Positions 215 through 63,093 of a stretch of 64,000 nucleotides of DNA are shown one piece after another. Source of the DNA: a virus (lineage: Duplodnaviria > Caudoviricetes). Within the stretch, counting starts at the first letter, position 1. Every line of letters begins with the position of its first letter. The stretch is taken from the IMG/VR virus record IMGVR_UViG_3300025000_000055, one strand, 5' to 3'. Under the pieces are notes generated by a model. It had not been told where the DNA came from. It saw nothing but the letters and a program-made list of their open reading frames with translations, and searched no databases. The translations under genes were made by a program, and so were the position numbers.

Positions 215-643
215 TTAATGTAATATCACTATTGAACTATAGTCAATAAAGTTTACTTTAATTAAAAATTTAATATAATACTTTTTATTAATAAAACCTA
301 CTTCTATTTCTTCTATTATAGAATTACCCCCTTTATCTTTTAATATATTATTGATTATTTCAATAGTTGGATATTCATTATATAATATATAATCTCGTAT
401 TAATGTAATTGATCTATTTAATAAAATATTATTTACTATATTAGTTTCTTCACTAATTGGAAATAATATTTCTAAGCCTATTAAATAACCATCTGGTGTT
501 TGTATTATTTTTATATCCTCTTCTTTTGTTTTTCCTAGATTGATAAAGAAATTTTTAATCAAATTACTCTTAATATTATATATAATATTATTATATAAAG
601 AATTTATTAATAAATCATTGTTACTAGTATTTTTTATATTCAT
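215..643 (-). CDS. hypothetical protein (142 aa)
   Basis: ORF with GAGGAGG SD and a TATATTAT motif at 706-713 upstream; no recognisable domain. Confidence 0.7.
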   Translation of the reverse strand: MNIKNTSNNDLLINSLYNNIIYNIKSNLIKNFFINLGKTKEEDIKIIQTPDGYLIGLEILFPISEETNIVNNILLNRSITLIRDYILYNEYPTIEIINNILKDKGGNSIIEEIEVGFINKKYYIKFLIKVNFIDYSSIVILH

Positions 644-799
644 ATTATCCTCCTCTTATTTTAAGTTATTTATATATTTTTATATAATATATTGTAACTT
701 AATAAATAATATATAAATAAAATTTAGTATAAAGATATTATATCTTCTATTATGAAAATATAAGCTTTATACTAAATTTGAAATTATTTTTTTATATAA

Positions 800-1331
800 A
801 AAAATAGTGTAGGTCCCTCTCCGATGGGATATTCTCAAGGGAGCAATAGGGTGCTTCGTTATATATTAGTATAATTATTCTTCATTTATGAGATTTTGGA
901 GACAAACTAAATTTATAATTGTATTATTGTATGTTTGCATAAGAGTGTTTTTTTCATTTATATCTTTAATGTTATGCTTTATTTATATAACTTATTTATA
1001 TATAGTATATTTATTAATATTACTATTTAAAATTTATTTAAAATTAATGAACTTTATCTTCGTAATATTCTTACGTTTAATTCTTTGTTGTTAATTTTAA
1101 ATTAATCTTTTAGATTAATTGTTATTCTTTCCCTATTGCCCTTGAGCGATTTTCAATTATTACTTGTTCACACAAGTAATAATCTCAATCTTGGCCTACA
1201 ATTCACTCTCGTGAACGCCACCTTGATCCAAAATCGTCAATTTAAATTACGTAATGACATATCATTACAAATATAATTTATAATAACGATTTTGTGCACC
1301 CCTATATTAAATCAAACATAAAGATGCATTT
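800..1331 (-). ncRNA. candidate large structured non-coding RNA, class unknown
   Basis: GC-richer intergenic blocks; nested long-range pairings (834-851/1131-1146, 808-815/1193-1200, 1229-1237/1286-1294); two hairpins with GNRA loops on the minus strand; AACA-N6-TA upstream. Confidence 0.55.
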
Positions 1332-1342
1332 AATTATATGTT
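1331..1342 (-). promoter_or_regulatory. late-type promoter AACA-N6-TA
   Basis: AACATATAATTA on the minus strand, directly upstream of the structured region. Confidence 0.5.
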
Positions 1343-1372
1343 TATTTAAATTATTTTTTATTTGATAAAAAT

Positions 1373-2212
1373 TTAATAAAAAATAAAACCATTGTCATCA
1401 AATAATTTCATCATATTATTAATAAATTTTCTAGTCATTTTATCTTTTATTTCATAATTATTTTTAAAATATACAATGAAAATCATTGATAAATTTTTAC
1501 TATAATTATCTTGTAGTATTTCTCTAAAAGTTTTTCTCCTATTATTTTGAGATGTTTCATCCCAATTTTTTATTATTGAATATGAATATAAACCTAATTT
1601 TCTTTTACTTTTAGAAAAACCAGCTAAATGTCTAGAAAATATATAATTAGTATTAATATCACTATTCATTAATTTAAATTTATCAACTAGATTAATATAA
1701 CTATTTAAATAATAAGGTTTCTTTTTAATATTAACTATATTGAATGTAAAAAAGATTTCATTTAAATCTGATTGAGAAATAATTTTTTTATTTAAAATAA
1801 TACTATCTTCTATTATATATTTAGGATAGAAAAAACGTAAAACAGATAAGAAATTATCTAAAGATAAATCAATAATAGGTTCACCTATTTCTTTTGATTG
1901 TAAATTTATCTTAAATAATTTTTTATATTCATTGTCTTTAAATAAAGTAAAATAACGATTATTATTTAAATCCACATGACTAATCATATTATCATTTTTA
2001 TTTATTAAATATTTATCATTCATAAATAAATGAATAAATTCAATATCTCTTAATAAAGAATTAAATATAACATCTAAAGAAGGTAAACTATCTTTTAATG
2101 GCATTATAGTTATTTTATTATCTTTAATTGTATATCTCCACCATGTATAAGTTCTTCTAGTTAATCTTTTATAAGTAACAACTCTATCTAATATTGGATG
2201 TGTAAAATTCAT
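1373..2212 (-). CDS. hypothetical protein (279 aa)
   Basis: Long ORF, AGGAG SD, co-oriented with neighbours. Confidence 0.75.
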   Translation of the reverse strand: MNFTHPILDRVVTYKRLTRRTYTWWRYTIKDNKITIMPLKDSLPSLDVIFNSLLRDIEFIHLFMNDKYLINKNDNMISHVDLNNNRYFTLFKDNEYKKLFKINLQSKEIGEPIIDLSLDNFLSVLRFFYPKYIIEDSIILNKKIISQSDLNEIFFTFNIVNIKKKPYYLNSYINLVDKFKLMNSDINTNYIFSRHLAGFSKSKRKLGLYSYSIIKNWDETSQNNRRKTFREILQDNYSKNLSMIFIVYFKNNYEIKDKMTRKFINNMMKLFDDNGFIFY

Positions 2213-2233
2213 AATAAAACACTCCTATTAATT

Positions 2234-2671
2234 TTATAATAATATTTCCTTTGAATCTAATATATACATCATATGAATAAATTGAGATATTATCTCTCCA
2301 AGTAATTCACAATACATTTCCTCATCTTTCCAATAATAATTATTATTTACACAATTTAATGTATCTATTTTACTAATTTTTCTTATATATTGAAATATAG
2401 CATGACCACATTCATGTGTAATTATATTTATATTACATTTTTCTATAGGAATGAGCACTTCTCCAATTTTATTTAATGGGATATTACCTTTATATATCTC
2501 TAAGTCTCTACATATTGCGTTAAAATCACATTTTTCATATCCTCCCGTACTATTATAATAATTATACATTGAATCATGAGAATTAAATATAAATACTTCA
2601 TAATATTTATCAGTTTTTTTAATATGATGTGGATATATTCCAAATACTTTAATTAATCCATCAATAACCAT
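2234..2671 (-). CDS. HExxH zinc metallopeptidase-like protein
   Basis: ITHECGHAIF motif plus downstream acidic EEMYCE. Confidence 0.6.
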   Translation of the reverse strand: MVIDGLIKVFGIYPHHIKKTDKYYEVFIFNSHDSMYNYYNSTGGYEKCDFNAICRDLEIYKGNIPLNKIGEVLIPIEKCNINIITHECGHAIFQYIRKISKIDTLNCVNNNYYWKDEEMYCELLGEIISQFIHMMYILDSKEILL

Positions 2672-2697
2672 TTATAAACCACCCTATTATAAAAAAA

Positions 2698-2725
2698 ATA
2701 AAGAACTTATTAGAAAGTTCTTTAT
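2698..2725 (-). terminator. hairpin terminator
   Basis: ATAAAGAACTT/AGTTCTTTAT stem with a T-run on the minus strand. Confidence 0.55.
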
Positions 2726-2736
2726 AAACTAAAAAG

Positions 2737-3336
2737 TTAATATATATTATTCCATATATTTATAGCTCTCAATCGTAATTCCATTGAAATATTAAAGAAG
2801 TAGGAATCACTTAAATTTTCTTTAAATAAATTGAGGTATTTAATTAAACCATTTTTCATATTACACATAAGAACCCATTGGTCTGCTGTAATTTCTCTCT
2901 GTATTGAAGAACTAAAATTTTTAGATAATTTAACACTATCATCTAAAGATGGAATTTTCTTATTTATTTCCATCCATTCAACTAACTCAGGAATTGCTAA
3001 ACCTTCTACATTCATTTCAATATGGCCAATTTCATGGGCTATTATTACATAAGCAACTTCTAAATCACTAAAAAACTTTATTACATCATATACCAATATG
3101 ATATAATCATAATTTACTTTATTTGCTTCAAATATTGTAGTCAATACCCTACTATCGATAATGTCTGTATCAATATACTTGGTATCTTCGATTAAATGCT
3201 CAGCAATTAATCTTTCCTTATTTTCAACCAATAATAACCTTAAGGATGTTTTAAAGAAACTACTATTTAATATCATTCCATTATCAGGATTATTGGGTAA
3301 ATTAAGTTCTATTGCTAATTGTTGTAATTGATTCAT
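2737..3336 (-). CDS. HExxH zinc metallopeptidase (M48-like)
   Basis: IIAHEIGHIE and REITADQW (HExxH...ExxAD pattern). Confidence 0.65.
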   Translation of the reverse strand: MNQLQQLAIELNLPNNPDNGMILNSSFFKTSLRLLLVENKERLIAEHLIEDTKYIDTDIIDSRVLTTIFEANKVNYDYIILVYDVIKFFSDLEVAYVIIAHEIGHIEMNVEGLAIPELVEWMEINKKIPSLDDSVKLSKNFSSSIQREITADQWVLMCNMKNGLIKYLNLFKENLSDSYFFNISMELRLRAINIWNNIY

Positions 3337-3507
3337 ACTATTTCTCCCCCTAATTAATATATCATTATTTGATATATTATAATAAGTATATTTATTCCCC
3401 CTATTAGTGGAATAATATTTATTACTATATTAATAATATATACTTAATATTAATAGAAATACTAAAAAAATAAATACCTATATAATTGTAACATATACAT
3501 TTATTAT

Positions 3508-3669
3508 TTATTCAACTTCATTAAATTTAATATCTACTGCTATATAATCAGTTCCATTTTCAATAACTTTATAAACTGTACCAGAACATATGGTATATAG
3601 CTTTTTTACCACTTCTTTAAAGTATTCATCTCTATTTTTATAACTAAAAGCAGAATGATCTGAATACAA
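3508..3669 (-). CDS. small hypothetical protein (53 aa, TTG start)
   Basis: Read by hand; TAAGGA upstream of TTG; fills the gap between terminator and next gene; below the ORF-track cutoff. Confidence 0.35.
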   Translation of the reverse strand: MYSDHSAFSYKNRDEYFKEVVKKLYTICSGTVYKVIENGTDYIAVDIKFNEVE

Positions 3670-3723
3670 AACATCCTTATATGATAATCTTTTTATATTA
3701 ATATAACCTTTATAAAAAAAAAT

Positions 3724-3755
3724 ATAAAGGTTGTTAAATATTTAACAACCTTTAT
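3724..3755. terminator. 32-bp perfect palindrome, probable terminator
   Basis: ATAAAGGTTGTTAAAT|ATTTAACAACCTTTAT just after the stop of 3776-4204. Confidence 0.65.
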
Positions 3756-3775
3756 TAATAAATTATCATACACTA

Positions 3776-4204
3776 TTATTTATAGTTTAAATCACCTTCT
3801 TCCTGCTCTTCAATTGGAATAGGACAAGGTACAAAATAGCTCTCATTAAGAGTATGGATATTTAAACCCTTACATAAAAATTTACCACGTTGTCTAGCTG
3901 AAGGGATATTTACAAATTCAATAATTTTAAAACCGGAACGTAGAAGTTTCAATGCATAATTTATAGGAGCGACAATACCTATAACTTTACATTTTGTAAC
4001 CTCTTCTATCTGTTCAACAATATTATCATTAAAGATAATAGTGTGCTTTTCATGACTTGTAATACCCACACATTGCAAAGTGGCAATCTGCCCATTAGTT
4101 AATTCATGTTGACTAAACCAATGGAGTTTTTTCAAATTCATAGAGTCAATACAATTATTAAATGGTTTACTACAATCTTTTTGAAACTTACTACATATAA
4201 ACAT
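3776..4204 (-). CDS. hypothetical protein (142 aa)
   Basis: AAGGGGG SD, protein-like composition. Confidence 0.75.
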   Translation of the reverse strand: MFICSKFQKDCSKPFNNCIDSMNLKKLHWFSQHELTNGQIATLQCVGITSHEKHTIIFNDNIVEQIEEVTKCKVIGIVAPINYALKLLRSGFKIIEFVNIPSARQRGKFLCKGLNIHTLNESYFVPCPIPIEEQEEGDLNYK

Positions 4205-4223
4205 TTTTTATCCCCCTTATTTT

Positions 4224-4439
4224 TTATTTAGGTTTAATAGTTAAATAATTTTTATCTATTCTACATTTATTTATTTTGGTTGTTAAATTATATTTATCAC
4301 TATCACTACAACGATAAATATAATACACAACATTTTCTAAAGAGGCTCTTTTTTCAGCCTCTATTAAAACTTCACATAAATCAGTAGAAGAAACATTTTT
4401 CTTTCTTCTATAATTTTTACCTAATAAAGAGAACTTTAT
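4224..4439 (-). CDS. hypothetical protein (71 aa) with ATA start
   Basis: Open frame read by hand; GGGGTG SD 6 nt before ATA; TATATTAT at 4471-4478. Confidence 0.45.
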   Translation of the reverse strand: MKFSLLGKNYRRKKNVSSTDLCEVLIEAEKRASLENVVYYIYRCSDSDKYNLTTKINKCRIDKNYLTIKPK

Positions 4440-4505
4440 TTAAATCACCCCTATATTATTATATTACTTTATAATATATATTTATAAGGGTTAAATAAAC
4501 TAAAA

Positions 4506-4910
4506 TTAAAGTGATAAAATTTTTAAATAATTTTCAAAAGATTTATGATCTAATAATAAAGCTAAGTTATCAAAATTATTATTAATAATATCCGTTAATT
4601 TCCAATCATCTATACGAATATTATAAAAAGTTCTAGAATACAATACAAAATCAGCATAATCACCTTTTTTAAGACTATCTAAAGATATAATTTCTGTACT
4701 AAAATTATGAAAAGATAAACCGTTAATATTATCATTAATTTTACTCATAGATAAAGATGTAAATCTACTAAGTAAAATATTTGCAAGTTTACTACTACAT
4801 TCAGGTATATATTTTATTTCTCGTTTACTGAGTTTCATTTCTCCACTAATACATAATTGATTTTCATTACTAAAAACAACTTTAGTATTTCTAATATACA
4901 TTGAATTCAC
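4506..4910 (-). CDS. hypothetical protein (134 aa)
   Basis: AGGAG SD; TATATTAT at 4941-4948. Confidence 0.65.
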   Translation of the reverse strand: MNSMYIRNTKVVFSNENQLCISGEMKLSKREIKYIPECSSKLANILLSRFTSLSMSKINDNINGLSFHNFSTEIISLDSLKKGDYADFVLYSRTFYNIRIDDWKLTDIINNNFDNLALLLDHKSFENYLKILSL

Positions 4911-4960
4911 TCCTATTCCTCTATTTTATTTTTCATTATAATAATATATATTCTTATTCA

Positions 4961-5644
4961 TTAATATTTTTTTCTTCCTATGTACATTATTAGACCATAA
5001 TACCCACCTGTCATTCTTTTTGGTTCTTTTATATATAGATCATTTAATGCAATAATTTCAAAATCACTAAAATATTTTTTCATTTCATTTTTAGTAATAG
5101 GTATTTGTTTAAAATTTAAATAATTAATATCATTTTTTGATAATTCCTTATTTGATAACATTTTATTTTTTTGATTAATATTAAATATTGGATCATTTTC
5201 AGAAAGTGTATTAATAAGAACTATCCCATTATAAATTAAACCATTCTTAATATTATTTATAAGTTTTTCAATATTATTTTTTGATAAATAAGATATTGTC
5301 ATTGAGCATATAATTAATGAATATGTATTTATAGGTATATTAAAAGATGTTATATCCTCTGTTTTAAATACACATCTAGAATTACGATATTTGTTTTCAA
5401 GTTCCTTAATTATAACATTAGATATATCTATACCTTCAATTGAAAATCCATTTTTTAATAGAAAATCTACGTTTCTACCAATACCTATTCCTAATTCAAG
5501 TACTTTTCCTATAGGAATATATTTTAAATATTCTTGTAATAATATATCTGGAATAGGCTCAAAATAATGATTCCCAGTAGTATAAATATTGTTATAATGG
5601 TTTTTAATATTATTTATTTCATTTCCATCTGATAATGAAAACAT
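4961..5644 (-). CDS. class I SAM-dependent methyltransferase
   Basis: VLELGIGIGRN motif I, GIDIS acidic motif, YSLIICSMTISYL, NGIVLI. Confidence 0.85.
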   Translation of the reverse strand: MFSLSDGNEINNIKNHYNNIYTTGNHYFEPIPDILLQEYLKYIPIGKVLELGIGIGRNVDFLLKNGFSIEGIDISNVIIKELENKYRNSRCVFKTEDITSFNIPINTYSLIICSMTISYLSKNNIEKLINNIKNGLIYNGIVLINTLSENDPIFNINQKNKMLSNKELSKNDINYLNFKQIPITKNEMKKYFSDFEIIALNDLYIKEPKRMTGGYYGLIMYIGRKKY

Positions 5645-5695: not shown

Positions 5696-5914
5696 AACAA
5701 ATAATTAATGACTAATTTTATTAAATTTTTCAGGAGGTTATTGATGACAAATGGTTGGACATCTGCTCAATAATAACAAACCTTTAACCTTACTTAATTC
5801 TAAGTTATTAATTTAGAATGTAAGGATTATTTTTTACCACACTCGTATGAGTAAAATACCTGTTCACCAACATCTTTATAATAAAAAATTATAAGGAAGG
5901 GTTGGTGAACAGGT
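5696..5914 (+). promoter_or_regulatory. structured 5' leader of the RNAP beta gene with two late-type promoters and a uORF
   Basis: AACA-N6-TA at 5696-5707 and 5869-5880; AGGAGG + MTNGWTSAQ* at 5744-5773; 13-bp inverted repeat 5858-5870/5902-5914 covering the SD region. Confidence 0.5.
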
Positions 5915-5915
5915 T

Positions 5916-8834
5916 TTGATTTTTATTTCAGATATACCTCATCTTAAGACTTATAAACAAAAAGTTTTACTACCTAAAGATGAAAAATACCCTAGTATTA
6001 ATAGTGTTGTTTTTATCAATAATAATACTATAGAATCTTCTATAGAGTTATTAAAACATGAATTTATTAAAAATAGTAGTATGTATCATTTTTATTTTAT
6101 GGACCAAATTTATAGTGGTAAATTATTTAATAGAACATTTAGGATTTTATACCGTAAAGAAAGAACTGATATTTATACTAATATAGAAAAACAAGTTAGA
6201 TTTATACAAACAGTTACAGATTTACCATCAGTAAATAAAAAAAATATATATGTTGATTTAATAAAACATAATACTTTATTTTTTGAATTAAGTAAGAAAG
6301 TTAATTTTGGAGTTAGAATTAAAAATTATATAAGTTATTTAGATAACTTAATTAATAATAGTCATTTTAATCAATACAAATATAAAACAATTTGTATTGA
6401 TATTAATAGTTGGATTAACGACGTGGGAACCCAAATAAAAGGTAAATTAAATTTTGATAATCCTATATTTATTATTTATTACTGTATGTATAAATATTTT
6501 GATAAATTTATAGAATTAGGAAATATTAATATTATCTTTTATACTAATGATAGTGTATTAAGATTAAATCCATCATTATGTGATAAAAATTCATATTCAT
6601 TATTTAAGAAAGAGATTATGAAATCATCTCCTAAAAGTTTATTGGATATGGATGAAGAAAATATTGAAAAAATATTAAAAAGAAAAGAAATTGCAGATAA
6701 AATGATAGGATATCTTAATGACCAACATAGATTTATTGGTGATAATAAAACTGAACAAGATGATGAATTTGAAAATAGTATTGAAGAAAAAGTTGATGAA
6801 ATAATTGATGCTAATAAATTAGATGATTCTAATAGTGAAGAAATATATAATAAAGTTTCATCTACTATTATTAATGATAATGAAATTATAAAAAAAATTC
6901 ATATGTTGAATCAGGAGAAAAAAGTTGGTAGAAGTACAGCTTCTATTAAAAGGGATGAAGAATTAAGAAATAAGCAGAAAGAAATAATAGAAGATAAAAT
7001 GGGAATATATATAGATAATATATATGAAACTACTAATAAAGAACAACTCGATATTCCTAAATTTGATGTTTCTGATAAAGTTAATACTACTAATAAAAAT
7101 ATAACTACTATAAGATATCCTCATTTTGAAAAGGCATATAATGAAGTTCTTCATGAAAAAGATTTACTTAATAATATAAAGTTTTTAAATGAAAAATCTA
7201 TTCCAGTTTACATCAGGAACATAGAACACATTGATTCTTCTGATGAATTAAATTTAAAAGAAACATATACCTTTGAATTAGAAGATGAAAATAGAGTTAG
7301 ACATAAATTAAAATTCGATGTACCTAAATTTATAGATGATAAATTTCTATATTTAGGTGGAAATAAAAAGATTATTATGAAGCAATTATTTATGAAACCT
7401 GTTGTTAAAACAGGTCCTGACGAAGTACAAATTTGTACTAATTATAATAAGATGTTTATTAGACGTTATGGTACTAAAATATCATCTAAAATAGAAAAAA
7501 TGAGAAAATTATTATATGAACAAAAAGAAGGTATTAAAGTTAAATATGGTAATAATTTATCTAGTAATAATAAATATAATACTACTATAGAATATGATGA
7601 ATTATCTAAAAGCTTTACTTATATTCGTATAGGTAAAACTGAATTTTATTTTAATCAAGATGATGTTATTAATATGATTACAGATAAAAAAATAAAACTT
7701 AATGAAAATGAATTATTAATAGGTTTTCATGATAATGGTAAAACACCAATACCTATTATAGTTGATATAAATACTCAAAGAATCGGTACATCTTTTGATA
7801 TAGTTGGTTATATACTTTCTATGTTGACTCAAGGTTTAGTACAAGATTTTGATGATATTAAAAGTGGTAAAAAATTCGTATATACTAGAGCTTATATAAT
7901 GCAAAAACATGTCCCTGTAATTTTATTAATTTCATTTCTAGAAGGTTTATCTACAGTAATAAAGAAAGCTAATATAAAACATTACTTTTCAGATAAGAGA
8001 CCTAAAGACATAACTAGTAATGAGGGAATAATTCAATTTAGTGATGGGTACTTAATTTATGATAAGTATCCATTTGAAAACTCTTTATTAATGAATGCAT
8101 TTGCCGATATTCCTACTAAAACTTTTGAATATAGTGAATTTGATTCAAAAGATGTTTATTTATCTTTATTTGATACTCTTTATAATAGTAGAATAATTGG
8201 TAATGCTTTTCTTAATTCATATGAATTTTTAATTGATCCTATTACAAGAGAAGTGTTACAAGATTTAAATTATCCAACTGATTATGTTTCTTTAGTTCTA
8301 TATGCAAATTCATTATTGGCAACTAATTCGTATATTAAAGAGAATAATATGAATCTTTATAGAATAAGATCAAATGAATTAGTTAATGCTTTAATATATA
8401 AAGAAGTTGCTAACGCTTATATTAAATATAGAACTACTTCTTTAAATAATAATCCGGTTAAAATATCTGTACCTCAAGATATCATTATTAAAAAATTACT
8501 GGTTGCACAGACCGTGGAAGACTACAGCACATTAAATCCTATTGTTGAAGTTGAGAAATCAAGAGTTATTACACCAAAAGGTCATTCAGGTATGAACTTG
8601 GATGAAGCCTATACACAAGATAAAAGGTCATATGATAAAACAATGTTAGGTATTTTAGCAATGTCAACTTCACCAGATTCTTCATGTGGTGTAACCAGAC
8701 AATTAACCTTAGAACCCAATATAAAAAATCCAAGAGGGTATATTGATATAAATGATGATAGACTTGATAAATTAAAAGATGTGAATTTATTTTCTCCAGC
8801 TGAATTATTGTCTCCTTTAGGAAATACACGGGAT
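5916..8834 (+). CDS. rpoB: phage multisubunit RNA polymerase beta-like subunit, exon 1 of 3 (spliced 5916-8834, 9614-9865, 10988-11932; 1371 aa; probably the virion RNAP)
   Basis: Beta motifs FLYLGGNKK and NPIVEVEKSR; splicing restores RD|DSIRTAM (DDANRALM-like); size and position next to the tape-measure gene resemble phiKZ gp178. Confidence 0.88.
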
Positions 8835-9613
8835 GAGTTGCTATTGTCCCACTATATAGAAATATATAGTTAAAAACTCTTCTAATTGTCGGGGACATCC
8901 TTATTGCTCTTATTACCAAATTATATTAGTAATAATATAATGGCTTAATCTAATCAATTAAGGTATGGTAACAAGATAAGAGATTGGGTAATCCGCAGCC
9001 AAGTCTCATAGTATAAAAAAATAAAAAGAGTTAAAAATTATAACTCTTTTAAATTAATTTTAACAATATTCTTTACCTTTTATTACATGACAAAGATAGT
9101 TATGGATATCACGAAGTTCTCTTCTAATATATAATTTATGTATTTCTCCAGTACCATCATATAATTCATCATATAATAAGAAGGTTTCTTCGATATAATA
9201 TCTAAAAAGTTCTAAATTTTTACGAGTAACAAATTCATCTGTTGCTCTTTCTTCGTTATTGTTATATTGCTTTAAGTCATTGGTGAATCTTTGTTCAAAG
9301 AACTTTTTAGTTATTTCTATAGATTCTTTGGAGATACAATCTGGATCTAATTCTTTGATACCATTCATTAAAATATCTTTGTAGGTAACTGACATAAAAA
9401 TCATTCCTTTCTTTTTTATATTATATAAATAATATATAAATGAAAAATAAAATTATACTATGAGAAAGGTTCAAAGACTATCGAAAGCATGTTTATTATT
9501 TAATAAACAGAAGTGAGTAGAGTAGGGGAAACCCCAAACGGAGAGCATCTAAACACGTAATGGTGAAGATGATGATATAGTCTGTCACTTATGGAAATCA
9601 TAGGTGGTTTCTG
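8835..9613 (+). mobile_element. group I intron 1 in the beta gene (779 nt)
   Basis: Exon ends in U and intron in G; P1 GGGAU/GUCCC with U-G wobble; AATTGTCGGGGA and ATCCGCAGC core elements; P7 GACTAT 9476-9481/ATAGTC 9577-9582. Confidence 0.92.
9060..9404 (-). CDS. antisense hypothetical protein inside intron 1 (probable start 9395, 111 aa)
   Basis: AAAGGA SD 9405-9410; TATATTAT 9429-9436; hairpin 9023-9051 with T-run downstream; no nuclease motif. Confidence 0.7.
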   Translation of the reverse strand: MIFMSVTYKDILMNGIKELDPDCISKESIEITKKFFEQRFTNDLKQYNNNEERATDEFVTRKNLELFRYYIEETFLLYDELYDGTGEIHKLYIRRELRDIHNYLCHVIKGKEYC

Positions 9614-30525: not shown

Positions 30526-30702
30526 CAAGATAGAAAAAATAATGGTTTTTTTATTTATATATTATTTATTTAGAAAAATAAATAATCACTGACTAAATTA
30601 ACATATACTATTATAAAAATAACCTCCCGCAAAATTATATTACTTATATAAAAATATAGAGATATAAGTTATTTAAAAAAAATAAGGGAGAGTGTTATTT
30701 TT

Positions 30703-41950: not shown

Positions 41951-42007
41951 CTTTCCAACCCCTTTTATTATTATTCATTCTATATAATAATATATAAATA
42001 AATTTTA

Positions 42008-44112: not shown

Positions 44113-44201
44113 GTAATCTCTACCTCCTAAATTTATTTATTTTTTTGTTTAATTAGATATAAAAATCTATTTAGATATTTTAATAATATATAATTAAAAT
44201 A

Positions 44202-60735: not shown

Positions 60736-61850
60736 TTTACGTTCGAAGAACTTTGGTCGCTCAGCAGTAGTAATATTGCTGATAGCATTCTGTGAACGCT
60801 TAACGAGCGGTGTGTGGGTTATTAAGAATAAAGTTGGAAAGATAACCTATGCTAACGGTAGAAGCGGAAATAAGTGGTATTTGACAGCCGACGAATATGC
60901 TTCGTAAGAGAACCTAAGGACCTGAAATATGGTTAGCTTGGTAATACCGTGTTTTTATGAATTAACTTTTCCCAAAAAATAAAAAAGTATTAAATGCTCA
61001 ACAATTCAATGAGGTGAGTAATTTGTTTAAAATTTCAGAAGAGGAATCTAAAGAATGTAAGAAATATTTTGGTGTTATTTATATGATTATTGATAAAACA
61101 AATAATAAAATATATGTTGGACAAACAAGAGACATTTTAAACCGTCTACGCCAATATAGATATGAAAGTAAAAAATTAACTAAACGTAATATTAATAGGG
61201 ATATTGGTATTGCTCTTTATGAAAAAGGAGAAAAGAATTTTGAATGTGTTATATTGGAGAAATGTAATTCATTGGTTGATTTAAATATGAAAGAGATTAA
61301 ATGGATAGAAAAACTTGACTCAAAAAATGTAGAAAAAGGATATAATATGGGTATTGGTGGAGAAGCGTATGAAAATAAAAGAGGGATTAAATTAACATGG
61401 GAAGAAAGATTAAAAAAATCAATACCAATAGTTGTATATGAAGATGGGCAATTTAAATATTATGAGGGTTCTAAACTCTTTGCTTCAATTATAGGAGTTG
61501 ACAGAACACATATAACAAGAGCAATAAAAAAGGAATTAAAGTTAAAAAGTATCTTATTTTTTATTATGAGAAAGATCTCTGTTACAACACTATTACTGAA
61601 ATTGAAAGAAATTTATATAATAGAAAAAAGATTTTAAAAGAAAAAGTTAAATACATTGAATTGGGGAAAGATTTAATTCATAGGAATGTAGAGATCATTC
61701 GAAATTTTAATATTTATATTAAATATTAAAATAGTAGAAGTACTAGCCAGTTTGAGGGCTGGTTGGGAAGCGCAGAACTCCTTTATATTTCTTATTCTTT
61801 ATAAAGGATGAAGAGATGATCCGTGCCATATGAAAATATGGATTATCATG
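60736..61850 (+). mobile_element. group I intron 4 in the beta-prime gene (1115 nt) with GIY-YIG gene
   Basis: U|...G| boundaries give DYDGD|QVSLKVLFSQEANLEA; P1 GCGAU/GUCGC; P7 GATCAT 61693-61698/ATGATC 61816-61821. Confidence 0.88.
61014..61637 (+). CDS. GIY-YIG homing endonuclease (C-terminus probably continues in the -1 frame to 61729)
   Basis: GVIYMI..NNKIYVGQT...R; E..WI..L....KGYN; NUMOD1-like HTH near the end. Confidence 0.88.
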   Translation: MSNLFKISEEESKECKKYFGVIYMIIDKTNNKIYVGQTRDILNRLRQYRYESKKLTKRNINRDIGIALYEKGEKNFECVILEKCNSLVDLNMKEIKWIEKLDSKNVEKGYNMGIGGEAYENKRGIKLTWEERLKKSIPIVVYEDGQFKYYEGSKLFASIIGVDRTHITRAIKKELKLKSILFFIMRKISVTTLLLKLKEIYIIEKRF

Positions 61851-62012
61851 CAAGTATCATTAAAGGTATTATTTTCACAAGAAGCTAATCTTGAGGCAGA
61901 AAGAATTATGAAATCAAAGGGTCATATTCTTAATATCTATGGACAAAATATGAGAAAGACAACAAATGAAGGTGCTCATACTTTATTTATGTTAACAAAG
62001 TTTAATAAATAA
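61851..62012 (+). CDS. rpoC: RNAP beta-prime-like subunit, exon 3 of 3
   Basis: QVSLKVLFSQEANLEAERIM matches the segment after NADFDGD. Confidence 0.88.
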   Translation, partial: QVSLKVLFSQEANLEAERIMKSKGHILNIYGQNMRKTTNEGAHTLFMLTKFNK

Positions 62013-62013
62013 A

Positions 62014-62055
62014 TATAAGATATAGATAGAAACTAATATTCTATCTATATCTTAT
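62014..62055 (+). terminator. 17-bp stem hairpin terminator
   Basis: ATAAGATATAGATAGAA..TTCTATCTATATCTTAT. Confidence 0.7.
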
Positions 62056-62058
62056 TTA

Positions 62059-62520
62059 TATATTATACCTATGGGGTAGATAATAAGAGTAAAAAATAAC
62101 TAAAGAAAAAATTGAACACATAATTAATAAAAAAAATAAAGAATATTGATGAAGATTGGATGAAATAACTGTTTTAAATGATTTTATTATTAAATTTAAT
62201 AATAAACCATATATACCAGCATATATGAAAATAATAAATCACTGTATTTACACCGGCAAACATTTCTCATATAGACGTAATGGAAGAGTTAAAATGTTTT
62301 AGATAAATATTAAAATTTATGTGATTTATTCACATATTTTTTTTCGTATAATTAACAATAATAGATATATATTATTTTAGTAATAATAAATAAAAAAAAT
62401 ATATTTTTAAGGGGGATTTATAATGATATATTGTTATGGTATTGGGTAAAATTAATAAGACTACCGAAGTATTATCTAGTGAAGATAAAATCTAAGAATC
62501 TTTTACTAACTGTTATATTA
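62059..62520 (+). pseudogene. decayed small early-type ORFs
   Basis: Two TATATTAT motifs and GGGG(G) SDs followed only by broken frames (e.g. MIYCYGIG*). Confidence 0.35.
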
Positions 62521-62603
62521 ATAAAGTTTATTAAAAAAATAAAGGTGTAATAATTCGCCTTTATTTTTTGTATGAACCTTAATCGCTATTATACCTTTTA
62601 AAG

Positions 62604-62990
62604 ACCCGTTTCCTAATAATAAAAAGAAATGGGGTGATCAGAAAATTGATATTATAAGATTTACAAACATAAATCATATTTATCAACGATACCGATAATA
62701 TTTTTTAAACCAAATAATTTATATCTTCTATCAGTAAAATAACATATAGAAGGGAGGGATGCCTATATACACATAAAGATGTATATGGGATAACCTCTAA
62801 TTATTTGCGAGTTTAAAAAATATTATTTTTATATAGCTTTATTTAAAATTCGCCCATAAATTCCCCATAGACACATGTGTATGTAGGCAATCTATGATGG
62901 ATGGGGACACTATCGGTTTAGAATACGATGAAGACTAGTTGCTGCCTATTTGTTACAATATATTTAGATAGTGTGAAAATATCTACTATT
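62604..62990 (+). ncRNA. candidate structured RNA or DNA element, class unknown
   Basis: ORF-free, GC-richer; nested stems and alternative pairings; strand uncertain. Confidence 0.45.
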
Positions 62991-63051
62991 TTATAATTAA
63001 ATATGTTACTGTTTAAATAGTGATAAAATGGTGAATTTACTTTCATAAAAT

Positions 63052-63093
63052 AAAAATAAAGCTCTGTGTAATAATCCACAGAGCTTTATTTTT
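63052..63093 (-). terminator. 17-bp stem hairpin terminator
   Basis: AAAAATAAAGCTCTGTG..CACAGAGCTTTATTTTT. Confidence 0.7.

Follow-up and report, generated by a model that had tools for sequence, protein, structure and literature searches.

A minus-strand structured RNA, apparently of a new family, in an intergenic gap of groundwater jumbo phages

Is an intergenic gap that folds far better than its shuffled sequence an RNA gene, the leader of the gene behind it, or neither? The question arises in a 64,000-nucleotide (nt) stretch of DNA (hereafter the window) from IMG/VR virus record IMGVR_UViG_3300025000_000055 (Caudoviricetes), in which a 729-nt gap (644-1372) separates two minus-strand open reading frames (ORFs), one of 279 amino acids (1373-2212; ORF279) and one of 142 amino acids (215-643). 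An initial annotation, made from the sequence alone, had proposed that the minus strand of this gap holds a late, structured non-coding RNA, with an AACA-N6-TA motif ahead of it. A structured minus-strand RNA with a late promoter motif of the type found in phage AR9 is borne out by compensatory changes, strand-specific G-U pairs and retention of the motif in relatives, and the element appears from its sequence to be a genuine, lineage-restricted structured RNA of an apparently new family.

Structure conservation and strand

The minus strand of a 556-nt stretch of the gap folds to -124.2 kcal/mol, versus -81.1 ± 5.5 kcal/mol for dinucleotide-preserving shuffles (z = -7.8; none of 100 shuffles was as good). 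Among the non-coding gaps of at least 250 nt in the window this gap is the most structured, and only one other exceeds it in local G+C content. The plus strand also folds well (z = -6.7), as expected of complementary strands.

Homologues of the element are present in two other lineages, represented by L001 and L004. Mean column identity across the three lineages is 91% in the flanking coding DNA, while the 5’ scaffold is only 67-82% identical. The pairing is nevertheless kept: in a model-guided alignment of the three sequences, standard pairs occupy 93% of the cells of the 5’ domain, and 10 pairs are altered on both sides, compared with 0-4 in slid controls, which displace the 3’ partners by 1-3 columns. 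The observed pairing values were equaled in 0 of 500 column shuffles. This covariation support is a count over three sequences and not an R-scape test.

Compensatory changes were found in at least seven helices (names and coordinates in Table 1). Three adjacent pairs of H4 are swapped in L001 (A-U to G-C, C-G to U-A, U-A to C-G), and three pairs of the H2 inner stem are replaced on both sides in L004; the H2 outer stem gains two further compensated pairs if L004 is shifted by one base, an alignment reading made by eye. The H3 stem has been rebuilt in L004 (UUCAC/GUGAA to GUCCC/GGGAC) with its pairing intact. H5 carries one compensatory A-U to G-C change (in L001). In the hairpin that borders the insert on its 5’ side, a U-A pair has become A-U by a double change, and the terminator hairpin has one compensatory A-U to G-C change together with matched insertions on both arms. 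Base pairs are thus kept through compensatory changes across the three lineages, beyond what the slid controls give. The helices, tetraloop hairpins, promoter motif and U-run of the initial annotation are all present on the minus strand at the coordinates it listed.

The strand of the RNA follows from folding energy and G-U pairs. For the 5’ domain, the three homologues reach -71.5, -79.4 and -68.1 kcal/mol on the minus strand versus -45.3, -48.4 and -49.7 kcal/mol on the plus strand, so that the minus strand is 20-30 kcal/mol more stable in all three. Read as minus-strand RNA, the alignment contains 37 G-U cells versus 5 A-C cells, and the 3’ arm of H1 shows several U-G to U-A switches that preserve pairing on the minus strand only. 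No ORF of at least 18 codons is common to the three homologues on either strand, which agrees with the initial annotation that the AU-rich region has no credible ORF. Since pairing is kept through double changes, G-U pairs are asymmetric and no ORF is shared, the minus-strand RNA structure is very probably under selection.

The same data bear on a DNA-level element, e.g., a replication origin or a packaging or recombination site consisting of inverted repeats around an AT-rich unwinding region. The 16-bp inverted repeat that flanks ~280 bp of AT-rich DNA, and the fact that both strands beat their shuffles, would fit such an element. We consider it very improbable given the asymmetries in G-U cells and in 5’-domain stability, the several substitutions that pair only via minus-strand G-U, and a GNRA loop that is kept on the minus strand only.

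Table 1. Coordinates of the element, its boundary signals, related motifs in the window and structured RNAs at the corresponding position in distant relatives.
Feature	Position	Strand	Remarks
Late promoter AACA-N6-TA, AR9 type	1331-1342	-	predicted start A1331
H1, 5’-terminal hairpin	1295-1328	-	window 14 bp; relatives 13 and 16 bp
H2, imperfect hairpin of 66 nt	1229-1294	-	base is the 9-bp stem 1294-1286/1237-1229
Junction GAUCAAGGUGGCG	1216-1228	-	almost invariant across three homologues
H3, small hairpin UUCAC-GAGA-GUGAA	1202-1215	-	pairing kept in L001 and L004
H4, 13-bp hairpin on 4-bp base GAUU/AAUC	1148-1190	-	100% of cells paired
H5, 16-bp long-range helix, 5’ strand	1131-1146	-	partner 851-834
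9-bp hairpin at 5’ edge of insert	1100-1120	-	100% of cells paired
Variable AU-rich insert inside H5	852-1099	-	53-56% identical to relatives
H5, 3’ strand	834-851	-	carries CU bulge, variable among homologues
3’ segment: hairpin CCC-AUCGGAGA-GGG, invariant UACACUA, then U-run	798-828	-	conserved sequence
Long AU-rich hairpin and U-rich tract, probable intrinsic terminator	720-779	-	formed in all three homologues
Early-type promoter motif TTTATTTATATATTATT for gene 215-643	705-721	-	boundary marker outside the RNA; invariant in three homologues
Other AACA-N6-TA motifs, usually after A-rich sequence	upstream of ORFs starting 12326, 26368(-), 30961, 33503, 35832, 44112(-), 45086(-), 47104(-), 54914(-)		
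TTTATTTATATATTATT in intergenic DNA	705-721(-), 9428-9444(-), 30550-30566(+), 41986-42002(-), 44182-44198(-), others		
Structured RNA behind ORF279 homologue, L039	5841-6130		fold z -4.1
Structured RNA behind ORF279 homologue, L041	5829-6022		fold z -3.1
Structured RNA behind ORF279 homologue, L045	5877-6110		fold z -6.4

H1 forms in each of the three homologues when they are folded singly. The H2 loop differs by lineage (UAUG, UUCG and AGAG). In the window, the 12(+1)-bp stem of H4 and its GUGA loop together span 1184-1155; the loop stays GNRA in all three lineages (GUGA, GAGA and GUGA), and H4 has a conserved GA/GAA internal loop. A systematic search of the three-sequence alignment supported neither conserved crossing helices or pseudoknots nor a pairing partner for the junction at 1216-1228. 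Two candidate pairings, GGGUGC/GCACCC and GGUGG/CUAC, were considered and dropped, as neither is kept in both relatives.

Compared with the relatives, the AU-rich insert (1099-852) shows 53-56% identity, versus 72-87% for the scaffold. It has no match elsewhere in the window, and the L001 copy has none elsewhere in the complete relative genome G001. Because it varies by drift and by insertions and deletions and matches nothing elsewhere, the insert behaves as a tolerated expansion and not as a guide; the guide scaffold suggested in the initial annotation therefore finds no support. A 49-nt palindrome-bearing segment is present in the L001 and L004 inserts and missing from the window. This segment (L001:5231-5279 and its L004 equivalent) contains the perfect palindrome UAUUGGGCAUAUCAAUUGAUAUGCCCAAUA, which is similar to a terminator palindrome, UAUUGGUGAUCAAUUGAUCACCAAUA, located after the structured RNA of the distant relative L039 (L039:6150-6195). 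Also within the insert, an AACA-N6-TG motif on the minus strand (938-949) falls on the AUG of a 21-codon ORF; the relatives keep neither, and the match is probably due to chance.

Promoters, terminator and limits of the transcript

The window has a base composition of ~20% G+C and encodes virion proteins, a giant protein of 3290 amino acids and the beta subunit of a phage-type multisubunit RNA polymerase (RNAP), for which the closest cultured relatives are AR9/PBS1, Listeria LPJP1 and Staphylococcus jumbo phages at ~33% identity. Its DNA is present only in groundwater metagenome runs from one study. In AR9, the late promoter consensus is AACA-(6N)-TA/G, with the last base as the start site (PMC5312081). 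The AACA-N6-TA at 1342-1331 fits this consensus, with initiation predicted, and is kept in all three homologues despite a 2-nt shift relative to a conserved upstream block. The motif also occurs 25-50 nt upstream of many structural or late genes of the window (Table 1), while the neighboring small minus-strand genes at 215-5644 are without it.

A second motif, TTTATTTATATATTATT, resembles the early (virion RNAP) promoter consensus of AR9, AAATATATATTAT-(6N)-G (PMC5312081). There are 10 matches to it in the window with at most two mismatches, compared with 2.9 expected, and from its sequence the copy at 721-705 is read as the putative early promoter of gene 215-643. Given a late motif that stands at structural genes and is absent from the small genes at 215-5644, the phage seems to retain both promoter classes of AR9. 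One TTTATTTATATATTATT copy precedes an antisense gene within the RNAP-beta intron.

At the other end of the element, the U-run at 804-798 is followed by an A/U hairpin and then by the long hairpin at 779-720 with its U-rich tail. As this second hairpin and U-tract is the stronger, the 3’ end of the RNA may be near 715 rather than 800. The ORFs on both sides of the gap are complete proteins in the relatives; ORF279 terminates at its own stop codon (1373), and ORF 215-643 has its own ribosome-binding site in addition to the promoter motif. The predicted order is therefore late promoter, structured RNA, terminator hairpin, separate early-type promoter and gene 215-643.

This layout is the main argument for a putative stand-alone RNA gene, and on balance we favor a late structured non-coding RNA of which the scaffold would be the functional part. 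The gene would extend on the minus strand from 1331 to ~798 or ~715, i.e., about 535-615 nt. The non-virion RNAP of the phage would transcribe it late in infection from AACA-N6-TA, and transcription would stop at the hairpin and U-tract ahead of the early promoter of the next gene. The conserved part would be the scaffold of five helices (H1-H5) with its junction sequences, and H5 would enclose the freely varying insert, which is akin to an expansion segment or linker. By analogy with the ROOL and GOLLD RNAs, function would reside in the folded scaffold, as a protein-binding or self-associating RNA that may act in trans, and not in base-pairing of the insert to a target. Three small SOLiD metatranscriptomes from the same study contained almost no words of the stretch.

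The region could instead be a cis-acting late leader. The late promoter would then re-express the downstream genes, and the region, as a long untranslated leader at their 5’ side, would govern whether the hairpin and U-tract are read through, by attenuation or antitermination; alternatively, it could serve to stabilize or process the transcript. The phage lambda pR’ 6S leader with tR’ and the HK022 put RNA, of ~70-200 nt, govern read-through by the host RNAP. The window element shares with them a late promoter and a structured non-coding transcript with a hairpin/U-tract ahead of further genes; it differs in being 3-8 times longer, in the separate promoter that follows it, and in its polymerase, which would be an AR9-like one of the phage. 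Within the window clade, a leader has to be reconciled with a strong, covarying terminator hairpin and the early-type promoter in front of the gene, and with ~250 nt of conserved multi-helix scaffold, which far exceeds the needs of known attenuators; the three-sequence alignment contained no covarying alternative antiterminator pairing.

Distribution and the position behind ORF279

The element is carried by three lineages only (the window, L001 and L004), all of them groundwater jumbo phages with AR9-like RNA polymerases. That of L001 is identical in L002, L003, L021, L030 and L036, and the flanking protein of this lineage, which takes in the complete IMG/VR genome G001 (249,853 bp), is 86% identical to that of the window. 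L004 is the same as L026, with a flanking protein 76% identical to that of the window. Both in the window and in G001 the element is single-copy, and a covariance model of the 5’ domain (R1) found no second copy in either, nor a match in the loci of distant relatives. Exact-pattern scans of IMG/VR gave no match to a 25-mer and one relative with a 20-mer; an 18-mer had 31 matches in JGI metagenomes, all to the three known lineages or random GC-rich sequence, and a 20-mer had 3 matches in species-representative genomes, all random. A blastn search (‘distant’ mode) of 50,697 phage records returned a single match, to a Mycoplasma phage, which is AT-rich and due to chance, and IMG/VR locus searches with three neighboring ORFs and RNAP beta added no new lineage.

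Further lineages were reached through homologues of the upstream protein, ORF279, at 28-37% identity (library-wide HMMER search). In distant relatives, including L039, L041 and L044, a late-promoter motif lies directly after the ORF279 homologue. Behind the late motif, L039, L041 and L045 have 190-300 nt of structured, G+C-enriched non-coding sequence (Table 1), followed by a hairpin/U-run; all three of these RNAs have a small hairpin at the 5’ end, a long one, linkers rich in purines and a small GC hairpin. In the 190-nt RNA of L041, the 12-mer GGGGGACCGTAC occurs twice, at the 5’ end (5833-5845) and after the long hairpin (5932-5944). In L044 just ~110 nt separate the late motif from the next gene. 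The window element could not be aligned with the L039, L041 and L045 RNAs by nhmmer or by MAFFT and RNAalifold, and homology is neither shown nor excluded. Either a single, rapidly evolving RNA family occupies the position behind ORF279 (the slot), or structured leaders that are unrelated to one another have arisen there.

The arrangement in the wider family keeps the leader model alive. A late promoter immediately after the ORF279 homologue is a feature of this family, including L044 with its short gap, and in L039 and L041 the structured region and its hairpin/U-run abut the ribosome-binding site of the gene that follows, and there is no promoter between. The genes downstream of the slot are, on the other hand, not homologous between the window clade and the distant clades. 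A cis-acting leader is the main rival account of the element, possible but doubtful.

Several points weigh against the favored reading of a stand-alone RNA that would act through its scaffold. The L039 and L041 arrangement, having no promoter before the next gene, suits a leader as well as a stand-alone gene. The initial annotation had a helix at 1200-1193/815-808 closing the element into one scaffold; the helix is present in the window (8 bp with one bulged A) but is not conserved, with two uncompensated changes in L004 and a CC to GU change of the 3’ strand in L001. Of the two GNRA loops that had been proposed on the minus strand, that of H4 persists in all three lineages, and that of H3 is GAGA in the window and GCGA in L001 but has been lost in L004, where it is an AAA triloop. 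No partner protein is indicated, and the neighboring ORF279 is without a recognizable fold. Finally, three closely related sequences give formal statistics on covariation little power and do not suffice to place tertiary contacts or the 3’ end.

For ORF279 itself, Pfam, PHROG and Atlas gave no lead, and cultured phages have no homologue of it; its family has eight members in a library of 1.8 billion proteins, all apparently from related jumbo phages. A confident AlphaFold (AF2) model (predicted local distance difference test score, pLDDT, 82; predicted template modeling score, pTM, 0.85) contains repeated beta-beta-beta-alpha units. No structure in PDB or AFDB matched it convincingly (best Z 4.4), so that the modeled fold may be new. 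Elsewhere in the window, 61638-63093 is a 1.46-kb region without an ORF of at least 80 amino acids and with a local G+C peak of 0.43; its Rfam matches are at chance level only, and small genes, an intron or a further RNA may lie in it.

Relation to known RNAs

The absence of known-family motifs remarked on in the initial annotation was upheld by Rfam, ARAGORN and a check for the group I core, all without a match. At gathering thresholds, none of the 4227 models of Rfam 15 matched anywhere in the window; these included ROOL, GOLLD, OLE, raiA, HEARO, 6S, RNase P, SRP, tmRNA, group I and II introns, pRNA and self-cleaving ribozymes. A permissive search of 600-1500 (E ≤10) gave only two chance-level matches, to SdsR on the plus strand (E = 2.1) and to a miRNA (E = 2.7). 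No tRNA or tmRNA was found in the 64 kb by ARAGORN.

The group I core comprises the P4/Q (AAUCCGCAGC-like), R (GUUCA..GACUA) and S (AAGAUAUAGUC) elements, from which P4-P6 and the P3-P7 pseudoknot are formed. The Q, R and S elements are clear in introns of the window’s own RNAP genes and are absent from 800-1342; the helix order departs from the P3-P9 topology, no P7/P3 pseudoknot is supported, and the element is intergenic, with no interrupted gene and no exons to join. Group II introns have a six-domain wheel, and the 34-nt hairpin of their domain V bears an AGC triad and a bulge of 2 nt. H4, the sole GNRA-capped long hairpin of the element, is an unbroken 13-bp stem without bulge or triad, and there is no Rfam match; the order of the helices and the location between genes are at odds with group II as well.

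Could the element nonetheless be a relic or a selfish element, i.e., a degenerate, ORF-less group I intron or other mobile RNA that has settled in an intergenic slot, with the insert as its decayed cargo gene? Like group I introns with looped-out cargo, it is a GC-enriched RNA in an AT-rich genome in which a long-range helix surrounds a variable AU-rich insert, much as in the loop of an ORF-bearing intron. Such introns exist in the same window, and different structured inserts occupy the same slot in related phages. Against these likenesses stand the missing core and unfit helix order, the lack of any Rfam intron match at E ≤10, the absence of an interrupted gene, and searches of the window and of the complete relative genome, neither of which gave a second copy. 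Sustained compensatory evolution also argues for a present function, and we regard a relic as improbable.

Protein-sponge RNAs such as CsrB and RsmZ carry many repeats of a short motif, e.g., GGA in hairpin loops. In the window element GGA occurs only in UUGGAUCAAGG and CGGAGAGGGA, and the element has no repeated motif or tandem repeat; a comparison within the window likewise found no direct repeats beyond AT-rich low complexity. With no repeated protein-binding motifs, the protein sponge put forward in the initial annotation is not supported. A virion RNA had also been suggested. The pRNA of phi29, a 174-nt RNA that is transcribed early in small podoviruses and has a structural role, is comparable as a phage-encoded structured RNA, but the Rfam pRNA model had no match and no loop-loop complementarity was found in the window element.

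The closest known kind is represented by ROOL and GOLLD, although the resemblance, drawn by analogy, would be one of kind and not of family. These RNAs are phage-borne and build RNA-only cages; the cages are homo-oligomers in which A-minor bridges and conserved kissing loops hold the parts together. The three homologues of the window element showed no conserved loop that is self-complementary, which is weak evidence on self-assembly of this type. The window RNA, like ROOL and GOLLD, is phage-borne, several hundred nt long and non-coding, with many conserved helices, and in it too a linker of low conservation lies within or beside the conserved scaffold. Published descriptions of ROOL and GOLLD as ornate phage RNAs include such a linker, and GOLLD rises late in infection (PMC12286853), in parallel with the late-type promoter of the window RNA. 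The differences are equally clear: the window RNA has no sequence or structure homology to either (no Rfam match at E ≤10), is not beside tRNA genes, is limited to three closely related phage lineages, and has yielded no conserved pseudoknot or kissing-loop candidates.

For now, as it rests on three closely related sequences from phages of an uncultured host, the element is best described as a good candidate rather than a discovery. Its construct is compact and well delimited, with a scaffold of ~250 nt once the variable insert is removed. An unlikely, more far-reaching interpretation is that it founds a new class of large, ornate RNAs of phages and is active in its own right, by assembling with itself, by catalysis or by capturing a host machine, and that the slot behind ORF279 is a conserved structured-RNA locus. 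If this is true, the occupants of the slot across this family of groundwater jumbo phages would have diverged past recognition, and the L039, L041 and L045 RNAs would be other occupants. Large structured RNAs to which no function has been assigned are uncommon, and several of the best examples, ROOL and GOLLD among them, come from phages. A further example that is unrelated to ROOL and GOLLD would extend the category of ornate RNAs to phages that carry their own transcription apparatus in the form of multisubunit RNA polymerases.
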